NCBI GenBank assembly: GCA_964626665.1
Contig: CAZVGK010000041.1
Coordinates: 1,487 to 22,193 of the forward strand
Length of the DNA: 20,707 nucleotides
Source of the DNA: an uncultured Gemmatimonadota bacterium
GTDB lineage: Bacteria > SM23-81 > DAOVCL01
Direction: 5' to 3'
Shown: positions 2,859 to 8,324 of the stretch, in pieces
Position numbering within the stretch: position 1 is the stretch's first letter
How the letters are laid out: every line of letters starts with the position of its first letter
The notes under the pieces: model-generated
What the model saw: only the letters and a program-made list of their open reading frames with translations
Database searches by the model: none
What the model was told of the DNA's origin: nothing
Position numbers and translations under genes: made by a program

Positions 2859-4037
2859 ATGGATATCTTCGAAAAATGTTTCCGCTACACCGCCGCCCGG
2901 GAAGCCAGGAGGGCCGGATACTATCCCTATTTTCAGGCCATAGAATCCGGGCAGGGCTCTCAGGTAACCATAAGGGGCAAAAGGATGATTATGATAGGTT
3001 CCAATAACTATTTGGGGCTTACCTCCCACCCCAAATTGCAGGAGGCAGCCATAAAGGCGGTAAAAAAATATGGTAGTGGATGCACGGGTTCAAGGTTCTT
3101 AAACGGCACCCTGGATATCCATGAGGAGCTCGAGGTCAAGCTGGCGGAATTTATGGGGAAGAAAGCTGCCCTGGTCTTCTCCACGGGTTTTCAAACCAAT
3201 TTAGGGGCGATCTCCACCCTGGTAGGCAGGGGAGATGTGGTCATTACCGATCGGGCTGACCACGCCAGCATCTTAGATGGTTGTAGGCTCTCCTTTGGCA
3301 AGCTTATGAAGTTCAAACACAACGATATGGAAGATCTGGAAAGGGCGCTGAAAACCTGTGGGGGGAAAGGAAAGTTTATCGTGGTAGATGGCATCTTCTC
3401 CATGGAGGGAGATATAGCTGATCTGCCCAACATAGTTAGGTTGGCAAAAAGGTATGGAGCCAGGGTTATGGTGGATGATGCCCATTCCATAGGGGTATTA
3501 GGGGAAAATGGCCGGGGGACAGCAGAACATTTTGGCCTGACGGATGAGGTAGATATAGTTATGGGCACATTTAGCAAGTCCTTTGCCTCCATAGGTGGAT
3601 TTATCGTCGCCCAGGAGGAGGTAATTGACTTTATCAAACACACCTCCCGGGCCCTGATCTTCAGCGCCAGCCCCCCTCCGGCCTCAGTGGCGGTGGTTCT
3701 GGCTGCCTTAGAGATAATTAAGACCGAACCGGAGAGAAGGAGAAAGCTTTGGGAAAATACCCGGATGATGTTAAAAGGCTTTAAGGATATGGGCTTTGAT
3801 ACGGGCACAAGCCAAACCCCGGTGATTCCCCTTATAATCGGCGATCAGATGAAGACCTTTACTTACTGGCGGAGGCTCTTTGAAGAAGGGATATTTGCTA
3901 ATCCAGCCATCCCCCCTGCTGTCCCCCCAGGGAGGTCTTTAATCAGGACGAGCTATATGGCCACCCATACAAAGGAGGAGTTAAACCGGGTCTTAGAGGT
4001 CTTGGGAAGGGTAGGGAGGGAACTGGGGATAATCTAA
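2859..4037 (+). CDS. spt: PLP-dependent alpha-oxoamine synthase, most likely serine palmitoyltransferase (Bacteroides-type SPT)
   Basis: [25 protein letters not shown] and the PLP lysine motif GTFSKS. The N-terminal YPYF and the [12 protein letters not shown] / IFSAS motifs are typical of bacterial SPT rather than BioF/Kbl. RBS GAGGA upstream. Confidence 0.75.
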
Positions 4038-4093
4038 CAAGGCTTTAAATATGGAATAAAGGTAACAGCACGGAATCTCGTGGAATTACACAG

Positions 4094-4226
4094 TGCGGCA
4101 AAGCCGCAACCAAATAATTCACCGCAAAGTCGCAAAGGACGCAAAGTTTAAAGATTATTAACTAATCGTTTTATTTCATCTCTCTTTTGCTTTTTATTTT
4201 CTCTGCGATCTTAGTGGCTTTGCGGT
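4094..4226. repeat. Palindromic repeat element: TGCGGC-AAA-GCCGCA hairpin plus imperfect inverted repeat 4121..4146 / 4201..4226 (CGCAAAG units)
   Basis: accgcaaagtcgcaaaggacgcaaag versus the reverse complement of ctctgcgatcttagtggctttgcggt, 20/26 matches; AT-rich interior. Confidence 0.7.
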
Positions 4227-4292
4227 TGCTACCAAACAAGGGCTACGGGGTTCACAGACAAAAAACCACTATCGTAGATCGTTTTTCATCTC

Positions 4293-4382
4293 TTCTACCC
4301 AGCTTTAGCCGGGGTAACCTCTTGGGGGCTTCAGCCCCATAGGGGCCTGAAGGGGCCCAACCCGCACTAAAGTGCGGTAGAA
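4293..4382. repeat. REP-like multi-hairpin cluster
   Basis: Bounded by ttctacc/ggtagaa; internal hairpins ggggct-tc-agcccc, gggcc...ggccc and ccgcact-aa-agtgcgg (4362-4377); ends CTAC/GTAG as in GTAG-type REPs. Confidence 0.65.
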
Positions 4383-4387
4383 CTTGG

Positions 4388-4474
4388 AGATTGCTTCGTC
4401 CCGATTTTCATTGGGACTCGCAATGACAGGCAAAAGAATGGGTCATTGCGAGGAGCAAAGCGACGAAGCAATCT
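4388..4474. repeat. Palindromic element of the GTCATTGCGAG...GAAGCAATCT type (RPE/REP-like), copy 1
   Basis: Outer 13-bp IR agattgcttcgtc/gacgaagcaatct, inner 11-bp IR ctcgcaatgac/gtcattgcgag, nested gtcccga..ttgggac hairpin; related copy at 17814..17981. Confidence 0.8.
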
Positions 4475-4643
4475 TATTCTATGCGCCCATAGCCCGCTCT
4501 CTGGGCTTAATTCTTGCAAGCCACCGATGATACCGCATCAGATGCCCTCATTTGACTGTGGAAGAGCCCTTTCTCTGCTTTCTCGCCTTTGGAATAGCTA
4601 AGCAGTAATCCACCTGGCAATTGATCCTATCTCCCCGGGCAAT

Positions 4644-4759
4644 AATGAAAAGGGGCGGACTTAAATCCGCCCCTTTTACATTCGGCGAGTTTTCGGCTTC
4701 CGCACAAAGCCACGGGAGAAAAACAGAAGCTTACTTACCCGCCTAATTTTTAATTACAA
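4644..4759 (-). ncRNA. Putative sigma54-dependent small RNA (~110-115 nt)
   Basis: Lies between a consensus -24/-12 promoter (predicted +1 near 4759) and an intrinsic terminator; no RBS-supported ORF inside; can fold GGCGGGU/ACUCGCC outer stem and GCUUCUGU/GCGGAAGC inner stem. Confidence 0.6.
4648..4677. terminator. Intrinsic terminator, potentially bidirectional
   Basis: aaaaggggcgga-cttaaa-tccgcccctttt: perfect 12-bp IR with GC-rich core and a T-run on both strands (minus strand reads ...GCCCCUUUUCAUUAUU). Confidence 0.85.
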
Positions 4760-4768
4760 TTAATATGA

Positions 4769-4786
4769 TTGCAAAAACCGTGCCAA
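4769..4786 (-). promoter_or_regulatory. Sigma54 (RpoN) -24/-12 promoter
   Basis: Minus strand reads TTGGCACGGTTTTTGCAA, matching TGGCACG-N4-TTGCW with exact spacing; about 170 nt downstream of a sigma54 activator gene. Confidence 0.88.
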
Positions 4787-4848
4787 ATTCAGATAATATA
4801 GAAAAAAATTAAGAGGAAGCTAACTGCTCGTTTTAAAAGGGTTTACAG

Positions 4849-4936
4849 GACAACCAAATTAATTTGTCTCAGAGGAGATAGCATGGATAGGCTTATAACC
4901 GCCAAAATTGACGATTAAGAAGATACAAATTTGGTA
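4849..4936. promoter_or_regulatory. Candidate upstream activator sequences for the sigma54 promoter
   Basis: Perfect palindrome caaattaatttg (4855-4866, about -100) and caaatttg (4926-4933, about -170), in the usual enhancer distance range; AT-rich background weakens significance. Confidence 0.35.
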
Positions 4937-4956
4937 ACCATTTAATTATTAAGAAG

Positions 4957-7900
4957 TTAGTTATTCGCCACAAATGACGATCCAGAAAGCTCAACGAGGC
5001 CCCCTCCCTCCAACTCATATTTTCTCATCTTCCTCCTAAGGGTAGCCTCGGGGATTTTTAGGAGCGTAGCTGCCTTTGTCTTCACCCATTTGCTCCTCTG
5101 TAGGGCCCCTAAAATGTTCTCCCTCTCAAACTCGGCTAACTGATGGGGAAGAGATCCGGGCCCCTGTTCATCCAAGGTAAACACCTGTGACCTCAGGGCA
5201 GGAGAGAGATGTTCTGGGGAAATAAACCTATCACCGGAGGCTAAGATCGTGGCCCTCTCCACCTCGTTTTTTAACTGTCTTACATTCCCCGGCCAGTGGT
5301 AGGCCGTCAGAAGCTCCATCGCCTCCTTGTTTACCCCCTTTACCTCTCCCCCCCTCTTCTCCGTGAAGAGTTCCAGAAAATGGTAGATGAGTGGAGGGAT
5401 ATCCTCCTCCCTTTCCCTTAAGGGGGAAAGCCTTATCTCCACCCCGGTGAGCCTGTAGTAGAGGTCCTTACGGAACCTGCTGGCCTCTACAGCCTTCTCC
5501 AAGTCCTTATTGGTGGCCGAGATTATGCTCACCTCTATCTTCCGAGATCTGGTTTCTCCCAACCTCCTTATCTCCATCTCCTCTAATACCCTAAGGAGCT
5601 TGGCCTGTAGCCACTCACTGGCATTGGCCACCTCATCTAAGAAGAGGGTCCCCCCCTGGGCCTCCTCAAATAGCCCCTTCTTATCCTGTATAGCATTGGT
5701 AAAGGAACCTTTCTTATGACCGAAAAACTCGCTCTCCAGGAGGGTATCGGTAAAGGCAGCGCAGTTTACCGGCACAAAATTTTTGTTGCGCCTTTGGCTG
5801 CTATAGTGAAGGGCCCGGGCAATAAGCTCTTTGCCCGTCCCTGTCTCCCCAGTGATCAGGATGGGGAGATAAGAATCCTTGAAGCTATTGGCAGTTCTCA
5901 GAGCCTCCTCCATCTGAGGGTTAATGGTCACTATGCTCCCGAAACCATACTTCTCCTCCAATCTCTCCCTGAGATAGAGGTTTTCCCTGAGCAGCTCCTC
6001 TTTTTGAAGCTCTGCCGCCTTGAGCTGGAGGATATCAGCCGCGAGGACGAAGAAATTCAGGTCCTTTTGGTCAAATGCCCCTTTGCCCCCAGTTGGGGTG
6101 CGGTCAACATAGAGGAAACCCTCAATGGAGTTGTCCCCAAAGGGGAAAACCATAAAATTCTCCACTTTCTCCTTTTTTAAGGTAGCGAAGACTTGATTAT
6201 GAACCACCGAAGTGCAGATAAACGGCTGACCAGGACTGATTGTTCTACTGGCTAAATTCTTCAAGTAGCTTAAAAGGAATTTGGCCTTTGCGGGGCTCAG
6301 GTTGTACCTGCTCATTAAGGTAAGTTCGCTGTTAGTATTAGGGCGGAAGGCGATAAAACCTCGCTCGGCATGCACTCTCTCGGAGAGAAAACGGAGCAGA
6401 AGCTCCATATCCTCAGGGGAGATGTGGTCAAGCCTATCTAAAGCAGTCCTCTCCTCCCTAATCAGAAGGGAGGAGGCGGCCAATCTCTCCTCCATTTTAA
6501 CCCTCAAGGTCAATATCTCCTTGAGACCATCCTTTTCACTTATCCTTCTAAAAATCCTCTCAGCCGATTCCAACGGCCCCAGGGCCCAGTCTGGATTTGT
6601 CCCGTTCATCTGGGCTTTGGCCAATTCGATCTCCACTAAGCCCTCCTCATAATGGGCCCCCAATCCCTGGAATGTCCTCCTTGCTTCCCTCAGTTGTTCG
6701 ATGGTCCTTCTCCTCCCCTCATCTTTCTGAGGGGCGAGAAGGCTAAACCTGCTCTCTACAAGAATCGTCTTCCCCTGTTCAAACCTTTCCCCAATGGATT
6801 TAAAGACCTCAACGGCCTTGCGGAAATTCGTTTCGGCTGCTCTCTTGTCCCCCTCTGCCTGAGAGATGAGAGCCAGAACCCGATAGCAGCAACCTTCCTC
6901 AAATCCATCTTTCAGGTCCTGAGAGATCCCTAGGGCCTCCTGGGCACACCTCGTGGCCTCTTTTAAATCTCCCCCCGCGGCAAGGTAAAGCTCTGCCCTC
7001 CTCCTCTGCACCTGGTTGACCAGGTCTCCCCGGGGGGCCAACTTCCTGGCAATCTCCCATGTCCTTTGATAGTAGCCAGAAGATGGTTCAAAGTCCCCTT
7101 TTTCTTTAGCCAAATCACCCAAAGATTCCAGGCTCATCGCCTCCTGTCTGGGGTAACTATGCCCCTGACAAAGGCCAAGAGCCTTCTGCAGGAATTTCTC
7201 AGCCTCCCCCCATCTCCTCTGCACTATGTAGATCCTCCCCAAGGAGATGTAACCATTCACGATGGGGAGGGCTTCCCCTATCTTCAGCTTAAGCTCTAAG
7301 CTCGCCTCCAAAAGGTTCAGGGCCTCCCTCCACTTTCCCATCCTCCGGTGGAGGGTACCCAAATTCCCCATCAGGGCCGCTCTTTCCCTCTCCCACTCCA
7401 GAGGGCAGATCCGCAACCCCTTCTGCAAGTACTTCAAAGCCTCATCCCACTCCGCAGTCATAAAGGCGACCTGGGCCAAGCTGTTTATGGCCTTGAGCAT
7501 CCCCTTCTTTTCGTTGATCAATCGGAAGGAGGAGAGGCTATCCTCGAAGTAATCCTTCGCCTCCCTTAGATTGCCCTTACGGAGCGAGATCCTGCCCAGG
7601 CAGTGCTCGGCATCGGCCAAAAGCCCATGTTCGCTGGTAGCCAGAAGCTCCTCAAAGACACCCTGGGCGATCTCCTTTGCCTTGTCATATTCCCCCAACT
7701 CCAGCCGCAGGTTGGCCTCTAAGATAAGCAGCCGGTAGCGCTCCTGCGGCCCGCAAGCCGACCTTTCCACCTTGCCTGTTTGCCTTAGACCATAGCGAAA
7801 CTTTCCCAGCCGATAGAGGCAGTCAGCCAACTCTATGCCTACCTTTGCCCTTGCCTGAGAAAGCGCATTGGATATTTGGAGGCCCTTTCTATATCCCTGG

Positions 7901-7971
7901 CACGCCTCCCGATAATTACCCAACGCCGCCTCCTTGCGGGCTTCCCTGGTTAACCTCTCAAATTCTCCCAT
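4957..7971 (-). CDS. Sigma54-dependent enhancer-binding protein: N-terminal TPR array, GAF-like region, AAA+ domain, Fis-type HTH
   Basis: ~500 aa of TPR-like repeats (e.g. ALMGNLGTLHRRMGKWREALNLLEASL); GAF-like segment ending GFLYVDR...FDQKDLNFF; Walker A GETGTGKE, VNCAA, ESEFFGHKKGSFTNA, Walker B LFLDEV, RFRKDLYYRL, WPGNVRQL; HTH AATLLKIPEATLRRKM. ATG at 7971 has a GGGGAGA RBS (ORF track starts at TTG 7998). No receiver domain. Confidence 0.93.
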   Translation of the reverse strand: MGEFERLTREARKEAALGNYREACQGYRKGLQISNALSQARAKVGIELADCLYRLGKFRYGLRQTGKVERSACGPQERYRLLILEANLRLELGEYDKAKEIAQGVFEELLATSEHGLLADAEHCLGRISLRKGNLREAKDYFEDSLSSFRLINEKKGMLKAINSLAQVAFMTAEWDEALKYLQKGLRICPLEWERERAALMGNLGTLHRRMGKWREALNLLEASLELKLKIGEALPIVNGYISLGRIYIVQRRWGEAEKFLQKALGLCQGHSYPRQEAMSLESLGDLAKEKGDFEPSSGYYQRTWEIARKLAPRGDLVNQVQRRRAELYLAAGGDLKEATRCAQEALGISQDLKDGFEEGCCYRVLALISQAEGDKRAAETNFRKAVEVFKSIGERFEQGKTILVESRFSLLAPQKDEGRRRTIEQLREARRTFQGLGAHYEEGLVEIELAKAQMNGTNPDWALGPLESAERIFRRISEKDGLKEILTLRVKMEERLAASSLLIREERTALDRLDHISPEDMELLLRFLSERVHAERGFIAFRPNTNSELTLMSRYNLSPAKAKFLLSYLKNLASRTISPGQPFICTSVVHNQVFATLKKEKVENFMVFPFGDNSIEGFLYVDRTPTGGKGAFDQKDLNFFVLAADILQLKAAELQKEELLRENLYLRERLEEKYGFGSIVTINPQMEEALRTANSFKDSYLPILITGETGTGKELIARALHYSSQRRNKNFVPVNCAAFTDTLLESEFFGHKKGSFTNAIQDKKGLFEEAQGGTLFLDEVANASEWLQAKLLRVLEEMEIRRLGETRSRKIEVSIISATNKDLEKAVEASRFRKDLYYRLTGVEIRLSPLREREEDIPPLIYHFLELFTEKRGGEVKGVNKEAMELLTAYHWPGNVRQLKNEVERATILASGDRFISPEHLSPALRSQVFTLDEQGPGSLPHQLAEFERENILGALQRSKWVKTKAATLLKIPEATLRRKMRKYELEGGGLVELSGSSFVANN

Positions 7972-7988
7972 CTTTAGCTCTCCCCGGG

Positions 7989-8294
7989 TTATCTCCAAAG
8001 GGAGATGATGAAATATCTGATTTGGGACCAGAGGGAAGCTAACTTCCCTCGCCGCACCCGGCCCTTTTTGGCGGATTTATTTAGAAAAAGGGACTGGGGG
8101 GAGTGGGATGTGCCTCGATCTGGAAGCACAATGGCACTGGTGTCAGGGTTGGTCGAACCATCTTTGTTTTGGTTATAGATGTCATCCCAGGGCTCGGCCT
8201 CATTGTAGTCCACACCCGATCCCGCAGTAGAGAGGGATGTCCCTCCTAATCCCAGCAGAAGGATGGCTGTCGCCAACATTAGTTTTCTCTTCAT
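7989..8294 (-). CDS. Small protein with N-terminal signal peptide, putative secreted pro-peptide
   Basis: MKRK + hydrophobic LMLATAILLLGLGG + SLSTA|G cleavage-like site; RBS AAAAGGA upstream (ATG 8294 or GTG 8297); stop 17 nt before the activator start; directly behind a sigma70 promoter. Confidence 0.75.
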   Translation of the reverse strand: MKRKLMLATAILLLGLGGTSLSTAGSGVDYNEAEPWDDIYNQNKDGSTNPDTSAIVLPDRGTSHSPQSLFLNKSAKKGRVRRGKLASLWSQIRYFIISLWR

Positions 8295-8324
8295 CACACC
8301 GGTCCTTTTAATGATTTCACCTAA

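Follow-up and report, generated by a model that had tools for sequence, protein, structure and literature searches.

A few Proteobacteria are known to have small RNA (sRNA) genes under the control of sigma-54 and an activator encoded next to them; GlmY/GlmZ and Qrr are among the examples. Here we analyse a 20,707-nucleotide (nt) stretch of DNA from an uncultured Gemmatimonadota bacterium (assembly GCA_964626665.1, contig CAZVGK010000041.1, positions 1,487 to 22,193). We call this stretch the window and use its positions throughout. On its minus strand, at 4645-4759, we predict an sRNA of about 112-115 nt, behind the gene for a sigma-54 activator (a bacterial enhancer-binding protein, bEBP). 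Judging from sequence and conservation, this is very probably a real sigma-54-dependent sRNA.

GlmY (and, in most Enterobacteriaceae, GlmZ) has a sigma-54 promoter, and the adjacent activator binds several dyads that lie over 100 bp upstream, with IHF sites in the intervening DNA (PMC4152352). The locus described here resembles GlmY and its activator GlrR in having two dyads, about 120 and 190 nt upstream, and an A/T-rich block before the promoter. As with GlmY and GlmZ, the RNA has homologous sister RNAs. Unlike GlmY and GlmZ, it has no sequence or structure match in Rfam. The activator also differs from the GlrK/GlrR system in that its N-terminus consists of tetratricopeptide (TPR) repeats, without a receiver domain. 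And unlike glmY, the RNA gene follows the gene of its activator in the same orientation, and it belongs to a different phylum.

The Qrr RNAs of Vibrio are multicopy RNAs that share a seed. They are short RNAs driven by sigma-54 and an activator, LuxO (PMC10162802), as we propose for the RNA described here. Qrr RNAs are Hfq-dependent (a work cited in PMC10162802). In contrast to Qrr, we found no Rfam Qrr match and no Hfq; also, the promoter is directly attached to only one member of our RNA's family, and the dyads differ from one paralogous activator to the next.

Three other groups of described elements share features with this locus. The LhrC, RsaE/RoxS, and CcsR RNAs belong to Hfq-independent systems, are often multicopy, and are not known to be sigma-54 dependent; their C/U-rich loops pair with Shine-Dalgarno regions. 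Our RNA similarly exposes UCUCCC in its predicted fold, and another RNA class in this genome (RNA-X, below) exposes CUUUCCUCC. However, the sequence is unrelated to these RNAs (no Rfam match), and pairing is our proposal. RNAs of the DapZ/MicL type are embedded in 3' untranslated regions (3' UTRs) and have their own promoters. Our RNA also shares a terminator with the upstream gene and has its own promoter just before the RNA, but here the gene in front is that of the presumed activator, and its coding region already ends before the promoter. As for REP/BIME hairpin repeats, there are several intergenic hairpin copies, some of which abut arrays of heptamers. The differences from REP/BIME are the low copy number, the fixed orientation, the orthologous positions, the G-U-rich stems, and the RNA's own promoter and terminator.

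The locus would provide a well-supported case of an activator-linked sigma-54 sRNA in an uncultured lineage, with a clean and testable set of promoter, dyads, and activator, and it adds a new structured-RNA family that is suitable for Rfam. It is also a lead to a set of sensor-to-RNA modules in a genome without detectable Hfq or ProQ. Our literature searches found no work that joins Zixibacteria (Candidatus Zixiibacteriota, the label of the congeners) with sRNAs, nothing related on TPR-type sigma-54 activators, and nothing relevant on the Desulfovibrio regulome.

A predicted sigma-54 promoter behind an activator gene

We defined a sigma-54 promoter by GG at -24 and GC at -12, with 10-nt spacing, inside TGGCAC-N5-TTGCW. 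The sequence TTGGCACGGTTTTTGCAA (4786-4769, minus strand) contains an exact match, TGGCACGGTTTTTGCA, at 4785-4770, with the GG at 4784-4783 and the GC at 4772-4771. This is the sole match in the window even if one mismatch is permitted. At this looser setting, shuffled sequences had a mean of 0.36 matches, and 33 of 100 had at least one, so the promoter match by itself is not decisive. The genome encodes rpoN (PF04552, 190.9 bits, in an open frame of 469 amino acids (aa) on contig C12). A pattern scan returned one sigma-70-like site, on the plus strand and at chance level.

The promoter leads into a stretch with no open reading frame (ORF) of 40 aa or more (4601-4893, minus strand), as a preliminary description of this DNA had stated. 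The same description had called the promoter an orphan, which turned out to be wrong: a co-oriented activator gene ends 171 nt upstream of it, with conserved dyads between the gene and the promoter.

The activator gene (4957-7998, minus strand) was identified from its Pfam domains and translation. It is listed with 1013 aa, and its true start is likely the ATG at 7971. The protein matches the AAA+ domain of sigma-54 activators (PF00158, Sigma54_activat; 9.3e-65), TPR_12 (3.1e-31), AAA_lid_14 (4.9e-26), and HTH_8 (2.1e-11). Its layout is N-terminal TPR repeats, a middle region with no domain assigned, AAA+, the AAA lid, and a Fis-type helix-turn-helix (HTH). The Walker A motif is GETGTGKE, and at the sequence level the ATPase and DNA-binding domains are intact.

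Two dyads of the CGTCA-N4-TGGCG type are candidate sites for the activator. Dyad 1, CGTCATTTGTGGCG (4966-4979), overlaps the last codons of the activator gene and is about 190 nt upstream of the -24 element; dyad 2, CGTCAATTTTGGCG (4900-4913), is about 120 nt upstream. We took it as the criterion for bEBP sites that the activator binds 80-200 bp upstream of its promoter; by position, both candidate sites would suit it. Dyad 1 is kept in three orthologous loci (L014, L016, and L036, described below), in intergenic DNA of which just 25% is otherwise invariant, and the orthologous forms of dyad 2 are CGTCAATTTTGGCG, CGCCAAATTTGACG, and CGTCAAATTTGACG. Counting both strands, the 3.17-Mb genome has 12 matches to this class of motif. 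By a rough estimate, chance would give as many or more, so the weight of the dyads comes from their position and their conservation in orthologues. The genome-wide scan found no second pair of such sites near any sigma-54 promoter. Between the dyads and the promoter is a region with conserved columns (4801-4832, minus strand), comprising an A/T-rich block, AATTTTTTTC, and a putative IHF-like element, AACGAGCAGTTA.

A near-identical promoter was seen elsewhere in this genome. At C8:80688-80703 (L006:1501-1516), the site TTGGCACGGTTTTTGC lies 56 nt upstream of an Hsp20-type gene, with dnaK next. It was recorded both as the same 16 bases as the RNA's promoter and as the first 15 bases of that 16-mer. 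There is no CGTCA-N4-TGGCG-type dyad nearby. These heat-shock genes may be sigma-54 dependent in this bacterium.

The predicted RNA and its terminator

We placed the start of the RNA 12 nt after the C of the -12 element, near 4759, and its predicted end is in the U-tract at 4651-4648. Folded as RNA, 4759-4644 (minus strand) has a free energy of -47.1 kcal/mol (z = -4.82), and none of 200 shuffled sequences was as stable. The proposal of a structured non-coding unit of about 110 nt thus agrees with the fold, the bounding promoter and terminator, and conservation at the sequence level. The predicted fold begins with a 16-nt A/U-rich 5' tail, followed by an outer stem (GGCGGGU/ACUCGCC) and an inner stem (GCUUCUGU/GCGGAAGC); its 3' part is a 13-bp terminal hairpin and then UUUU. 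The A/U-rich 5' end and the outer stem had both been noticed in the preliminary description. Of the two alternative inner pairings that it offered, GCUUCUGU/GCGGAAGC is the one that appears in the fold; GGCUU/AAGCC is fully kept in only two of the four copies in this genome (by eye).

The core hairpin (4684-4743, minus strand) is the unit that is repeated in the RNA's family, as defined by the fold, the family alignments, covariation, and an asymmetry in G-U pairs. In the outer stem, 4743-4737 pairs with 4690-4684, and in the inner stem, 4730-4723 pairs with 4703-4696, with internal loops between the stems. The 19-nt apical loop, UUUUCUCCCGUGGCUUUGU (4704-4722, minus strand), is the most conserved part of the family. 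It holds UCUCCC, the anti-Shine-Dalgarno-like motif that had been predicted to be exposed. Insertions and deletions among the hairpin copies disrupt every reading frame (alignment of the copies from this genome).

The intrinsic terminator (4648-4673, minus strand) consists of the hairpin GGGGCGGAUUUAAGUCCGCCCC and UUUU, and its presence, also foreseen earlier, fits the compensatory changes seen in orthologues. As it is flanked on the 5' side by AAAA, it may act in both directions. A simple scan for terminator patterns did not list this hairpin, so the terminator call rests on the fold and on conservation in orthologues; we think that the scan missed it because the terminal stem reaches into the flanking A and T runs.

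The preliminary description had suggested a comparison with Rfam, and we found no matching family. With Rfam 15 at gathering thresholds, there were no matches in the whole window, Qrr, GlmY/GlmZ, CsrB/RsmZ, and 6S included. In E-value mode, the best scores for 4500-4900 were at most 22 bits (the cut-offs are 35-99 bits), which is chance level, and for three paralogous loci there were chance-level matches only, none of them on the hairpin copy.

Conservation of the unit at orthologous loci

We identified five distinct loci of this type (type A): the one in the window (L011), one in each of two genomes from the same genus (L014 in G001 and L016 in G002), and two on metagenome contigs (L036 and L038). 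L014 and L016 were found with a covariance model of the hairpin, and L036 and L038 were found by a motif scan of metagenome contigs. The order of activator, promoter, hairpin, and terminator is the same in L014, L016, and L036. L038 has the RNA, but its flank is too short to reach the activator. The orthologous activators are 74-79% identical across the full protein and 78-86% identical over C-terminal parts. The orthologous promoters are CTGGCATAGATTTTGCA, TTGGCATAAATTTTGCT, and CTGGCATAGATTTTGCT, and GG-N10-GC is kept in four of the five loci.

Conservation is concentrated on the proposed RNA. We counted invariant columns across L011, L014, L016, and L036; L038 was omitted, as its upstream part is cut off and it hardly differs from L014. 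The A-tract and hairpin are invariant at 64 of 70 columns (91%) and the promoter 16-mer at 11 of 16. The corresponding figures are 10 of 26 for the terminator, 49 of 194 (25%) for the region from the activator's stop codon to the promoter, and only 1 of 34 (3%) downstream of the terminator. The terminator stem changes in a compensatory way across orthologues: GGGGCGG/CCGCCCC, GAGGCGG/CCGCCUC, and GAGGCGAAC/GUUCGCCUC. Conservation of the promoter and stems in related genomes had been proposed as a check of the preliminary description, and both are indeed kept.

In four of the five type-A loci, the next gene is convergent and encodes a protein with a class I/II aminotransferase fold (PF00155), which argues against a leader. 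The exception is in G002, where a co-oriented HNH gene lies 330 nt after the terminator.

A multicopy hairpin family

This genome has four copies of the hairpin (4743-4684 and three more), and the other two genomes of the genus have three and seven. When we searched 101 genomes with the hairpin model, four had matches at E <= 0.01: this genome, both congeners, and G066. G066 is unrelated and its match is marginal (E = 0.009), so we took it as chance. The hairpin was not found in the four genomes of the phylum's other family (three of seven genomes from the phylum were positive). The taxonomic range is narrow (one genus and close metagenome relatives); within these searches, the family appears to be genus-restricted in this sense and undescribed.

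To add copies, we also used the exact 20-mer of the loop, which recruited 26 loci (4 on genome contigs and 22 on metagenome contigs). The hairpin model matches 25 of these. In the other one (L037), the 20-mer is in an apparent coding sequence (by eye), and we took this locus as a chance match. In the 31 distinct copies, 98.1% of the 524 pair cells form a pair, as compared to only 32-54% if the register is slid. Six of the 17 base pairs are altered on both sides, versus 1.9 +/- 1.0 in shuffles, and none of 500 shuffles reached six. Covariation had been proposed as another check; the stems do covary, and the comparative evidence raises the unit well above chance. Furthermore, 101 of the 524 cells (19%) are G-U, and the complementary strand would pair at just 78.8% of cells. 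This asymmetry points to an RNA that is read from the minus strand of the window and to a strand-specific structure.

The stems vary among copies while the apical loop stays nearly invariant. Of the 14 copies that were found with the model only, 11 retain CCCGUGG and 13 retain GCUUUGUG (by eye).

Many of the copies have a consistent genomic context. Thirteen of the 31 distinct copies follow an activator gene of the same family in the same orientation: these are the four type-A copies with enough flank and nine copies that are linked to paralogues of the activator (42-68% identity). For another group (type C), the preceding gene is ftsZ in each of the three genomes, at a distance of 79-200 nt (C10:53163-53245, or L012, in this genome; L017 in G001; and L018 in G002). 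The ftsZ-linked copy is possibly a family member derived from a 3' UTR. That copies keep their position across species, behind the activator and behind ftsZ, argues against recent mobility. The preliminary description had anticipated paralogous copies with the same promoter. The copies do exist, but the same promoter is not directly attached to them. In a subfamily (L047, L049, and L050), TTGACA-N17-TATTCA is directly upstream of the hairpin.

Paralogous activators and two further RNA classes

In eight of the nine paralogue-linked loci (type B), there is a good sigma-54 promoter 220-470 nt upstream of the hairpin. These promoters are often preceded by a hairpin and T-run and followed by a different conserved RNA without an ORF, which we call RNA-X. 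In the ninth locus (L054), 634 nt separate the promoter from the hairpin, and a ribosome-binding site and ATG come after the promoter; we read it as serving a putative small protein gene. At each paralogue, the region from the stop codon to the promoter contains a distinct set of dyads, for example GTGAY-N5-GTCAC or TGTAAACT...AGTTTACA.

In RNA-X, a stem (GCAGGC/GCCUGC) is accompanied by the unpaired invariant sequence CUUUCCUCCAAA and by a GC-rich hairpin that covaries and lacks a U-tract. It is found on contigs C15 (L010/L064), C12 (L071), and C9 of this genome and at metagenome loci L030, L031, L033, L039, L042, and L048. Heptamer arrays (ATTCGTG and ATTCTTA) lie between RNA-X and the hairpin. 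A third class, RNA-Y, lies behind further TPR activators and begins ..GUCUCCGC(UU)GUCCGUGGCUU... (C39:17384, plus strand, and C2 near 151,090, minus strand, in this genome; L065, L072, and L079 in G002; and L066 in G001). RNA-Y and the hairpin loop have the short motif CCGUGGCUU in common. We considered whether RNA-X and RNA-Y belong to the hairpin family and rejected this: with filters off, the best E value of model R2 across eight of their loci was 0.71.

All six of the TPR-type activator genes in this genome are followed by a sigma-54 promoter and a conserved ORF-less sequence. The RNA class is the hairpin on C41; RNA-X on C15, C12, and C9; and RNA-Y on C39 and C2. We looked at 12 TPR-activator loci across the three genomes. 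In 11 of them, the stop codon is followed at a distance of 170-320 nt by a sigma-54 promoter and then by a conserved ORF-less sequence; in the remaining one, whose available flank is just 501 nt long, we saw the RNA-X motif. This genome has five long activators of the TPR type and a partial one, while G002 has at least 12 and G001 at least two full-length ones.

Within the phylum, the long TPR-type activators are found only in this genus, and matches in the other family are just to the AAA+ and HTH domains. Among 201 genomes searched, distant proteins of similar length were found in 11 of the 198 that are outside the genus. We checked six of these loci by eye downstream of the stop codon (L097-L102, from G090, G085, G159, G072, G065, and G025). 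In three, a sigma-54-like site is followed by an apparent protein start (a ribosome-binding-like stretch and a start codon), and in G159 we read this as the start of a sigma-70-family gene. One other locus has a site with a variant -12 element, and in two we saw none. A non-coding target for a TPR-type activator may be peculiar to this genus.

A small conserved ORF of about 50-60 aa (MES..., ...KKGLWQK..., ...DPSDW) with a strong ribosome-binding site was seen 350-600 nt downstream of RNA-X promoters (C15, about 67,880-68,070; C12, about 3,700-3,870; and C9, about 86,550-86,700). It may be the protein-coding end of the RNA-X units.

We also noticed a sigma-54 promoter with no adjoining activator gene. 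At C10:80516-80701 (plus strand; L007/L055), the promoter TTGGCATAATAATTGCA, near 80,542, is followed by about 140 nt without an ORF and a terminator, and a tRNA-like sequence (by eye) follows on the other strand. The stretch is 85% identical in G002 (C102:16674-16850, L056). The invariant 5' part of the predicted RNA, GGCCUCCGCACAAAGCUUACCACCC, could pair with either arm of the family's hairpin by complementarity, and in cofolding with the hairpin, 9.6 to 13.5 kcal/mol are gained over the separate folds. On this modelling, the C10 stretch is possibly an antagonist RNA, or, just as likely, a copy of the hairpin that has been inverted and has decayed.

Proposed action of the RNA and alternatives

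We propose that the activator probably binds both dyads, contacts the closed complex at TGGCAC-N5-TTGCA, and would thereby switch on an RNA of about 115 nt. Transcription by sigma-54 RNA polymerase would stop at the hairpin and U-tract that the RNA itself carries. The RNA may double as the 3' end of the activator mRNA, since there is no terminator between the two genes (no hairpin with a T-run lies between the activator's stop codon and the promoter). As the type-A member of the family, the RNA would most likely act in trans via its loop. Our first choice is that UCUCCC and its neighbours pair with ribosome-binding sites of the GGGAG type, and our second choice is that the loop binds a protein. 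The loop's UCUCCC is complementary to GGGAG, and RNA-X exposes CCUCC. Ribosome-binding sites that would fit include GGAGG (hsp20) and GGGGAGAG (the activator itself). Overall, we think it probable that this is a stand-alone sRNA gene, controlled by sigma-54 and the activator, whose RNA acts in trans via its loop, with pairing as the favoured mode. Activation by the adjacent activator, action in trans, and the class of target are steps that we infer. That the RNA works by pairing at ribosome-binding sites is a tentative suggestion from its sequence.

Several results weigh against this account. As to the gene and its control, the expression of the RNA and both of its ends are deduced from the DNA, and all 24 sequencing runs listed for 4400-5400 are of DNA. 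The GAFTGA loop of the activator is a variant, GSFTNA, which keeps F and T and deviates from the consensus at two positions. The promoter of L038 ends in ...TTTTGTA, with GT instead of GC at -12, and a motif scan of the other hairpin copies found no sigma-54 promoter within 90 nt upstream of them. As to the family, the invariance of the loop is partly by construction, since 26 loci were recruited by the exact 20-mer of the loop. The set that shows covariation is shallow (one genus and close metagenome relatives), so kinship can inflate the counts, and the alignment (A4) was fitted to the structure of the model. The other hairpin copies are embedded in repeat mosaics of a repeat-rich genome that contains, as a dispersed repeat, 59 heptamer arrays of the ATTCTTA type. 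As to targets, we compared duplex energies of the loop across 2,885 start regions, taken from crude gene calls, and found 582 sites at or below -16 kcal/mol, versus 209-781 for five shuffled loops, so that the real loop did no better than the controls. Exact complements of 11-14 nt of the loop occur only in the family's own copies and at chance-level numbers. For the neighbouring genes and the activator's start region, nothing beyond generic Shine-Dalgarno pairing was found. Finally, Hfq (PF17209) and ProQ (PF04352) have no matches in this genome, which is 99.65% complete. These chaperones are common but not obligatory for base-pairing sRNAs.

The same gene, under the same control, might instead make an RNA that binds a protein via its invariant loop, as a decoy or sponge. 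We consider this unlikely, although it has some attractions: a 19-nt loop that is near-constant on changing stems would suit one fixed protein partner just as well as pairing, no mRNA target stood out, and CCGUGGCUU recurs in the unrelated RNA-Y behind paralogous activators. The absence of detectable Hfq and ProQ would also fit, and there is a precedent in the sigma-54-dependent GlmY, which binds RapZ without needing Hfq (PMC4152352). But no candidate binding protein emerged. The RNA has a single hairpin without the repeated sites that are typical of sponge RNAs such as CsrB/RsmZ, its loop has no GGA, and the genome's CsrA match is below the family cut-off (26.4 versus 27 bits). The constancy of the loop, moreover, is subject to the recruitment effect described above. 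It is quite improbable, in our view, that the hairpin is a cis element (a 3'-UTR stabiliser, a processing signal, or a leader) and that the promoter is just a second route to the activator mRNA's 3' end. Against this, type-A loci conserve both a perfect promoter, 12-17 nt ahead of the hairpin, and a terminator that directly follows it, and a riboswitch or leader should have a consistent co-oriented downstream gene, which four of the five type-A loci lack. In L047, L049, and L050, TTGACA-N17-TATTCA suggests that the hairpin is independently transcribed. What a cis element would explain is the lack of a terminator between the activator gene and the hairpin, the type-C copies behind ftsZ in three of three genomes, the type-B hairpins that are 220-470 nt after a sigma-54 promoter and inside a longer non-coding stretch, and the co-oriented HNH gene in G002.

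In a repeat-rich genome, the most important alternative to exclude is that the hairpin is a repeat at the DNA level (REP/BIME-like, or a module of the cassette arms) with no function as RNA. Four of the 59 ATTCTTA-type arrays abut hairpin copies, and the heptamer repeats have a CCGTGG motif in common with the hairpin loop. Nevertheless, we judge this very unlikely. There are only 3-7 copies per genome, which together with the orthologous positions and G-U-rich stems is unlike REP/REPIN elements. All 13 of the activator-linked copies are co-oriented with the activator, and positions are orthologous across species despite diverged flanks. On the complementary strand, the G-U pair cells, 19% of the total, would turn into A-C mismatches. 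Recent spread should not leave stems that vary around a fixed loop, but the opposite pattern, and a promoter and terminator are conserved around the type-A copy.

If we return to the favoured account, an sRNA gene that acts in trans, it can be extended to the paralogous cassettes, although we are doubtful about this larger picture. The genus would have swapped the protein targets of its TPR activators for sRNAs and multiplied the module (six cassettes in this genome and at least 12 in a congener, each with its own dyads). Three RNA classes would expose anti-Shine-Dalgarno-like C/U-rich motifs, so that different sensors would converge on Hfq-independent control of translation, and the C10 RNA could be an antagonist. 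Such an expansion of cassettes, if true, would be a new variant of activator-linked sRNA control.

Additional observations on the surrounding sequence

The heptamer arrays end in AATTG, which is usually followed by CTTTTTTCCGTGAGATTCCGTGG and sometimes by ATTCGTG arrays. They are often 27-100 nt before the start of a gene; examples are C10:42430 (minus strand), C15:67773 (plus strand), and C3:124975 (minus strand). Three of the hairpin copies in this genome directly follow an array.

Upstream of the activator gene, a 102-aa ORF (7989-8297, minus strand) overlaps the listed start of the activator. It has a signal-peptide-like N-terminus and no Pfam match, and it may be co-transcribed with the activator gene.

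On the other side of the RNA, the roughly 600 nt between its terminator and the convergent gene with the aminotransferase fold (4038-4640) consist of a patchwork of repeats, which are also present at other loci. These include inverted repeats of the GTCATTGCGAG type near 4400-4470 and a TTCTACC...GGTAGAA element at about 4270-4360 (our own count from the sequence).

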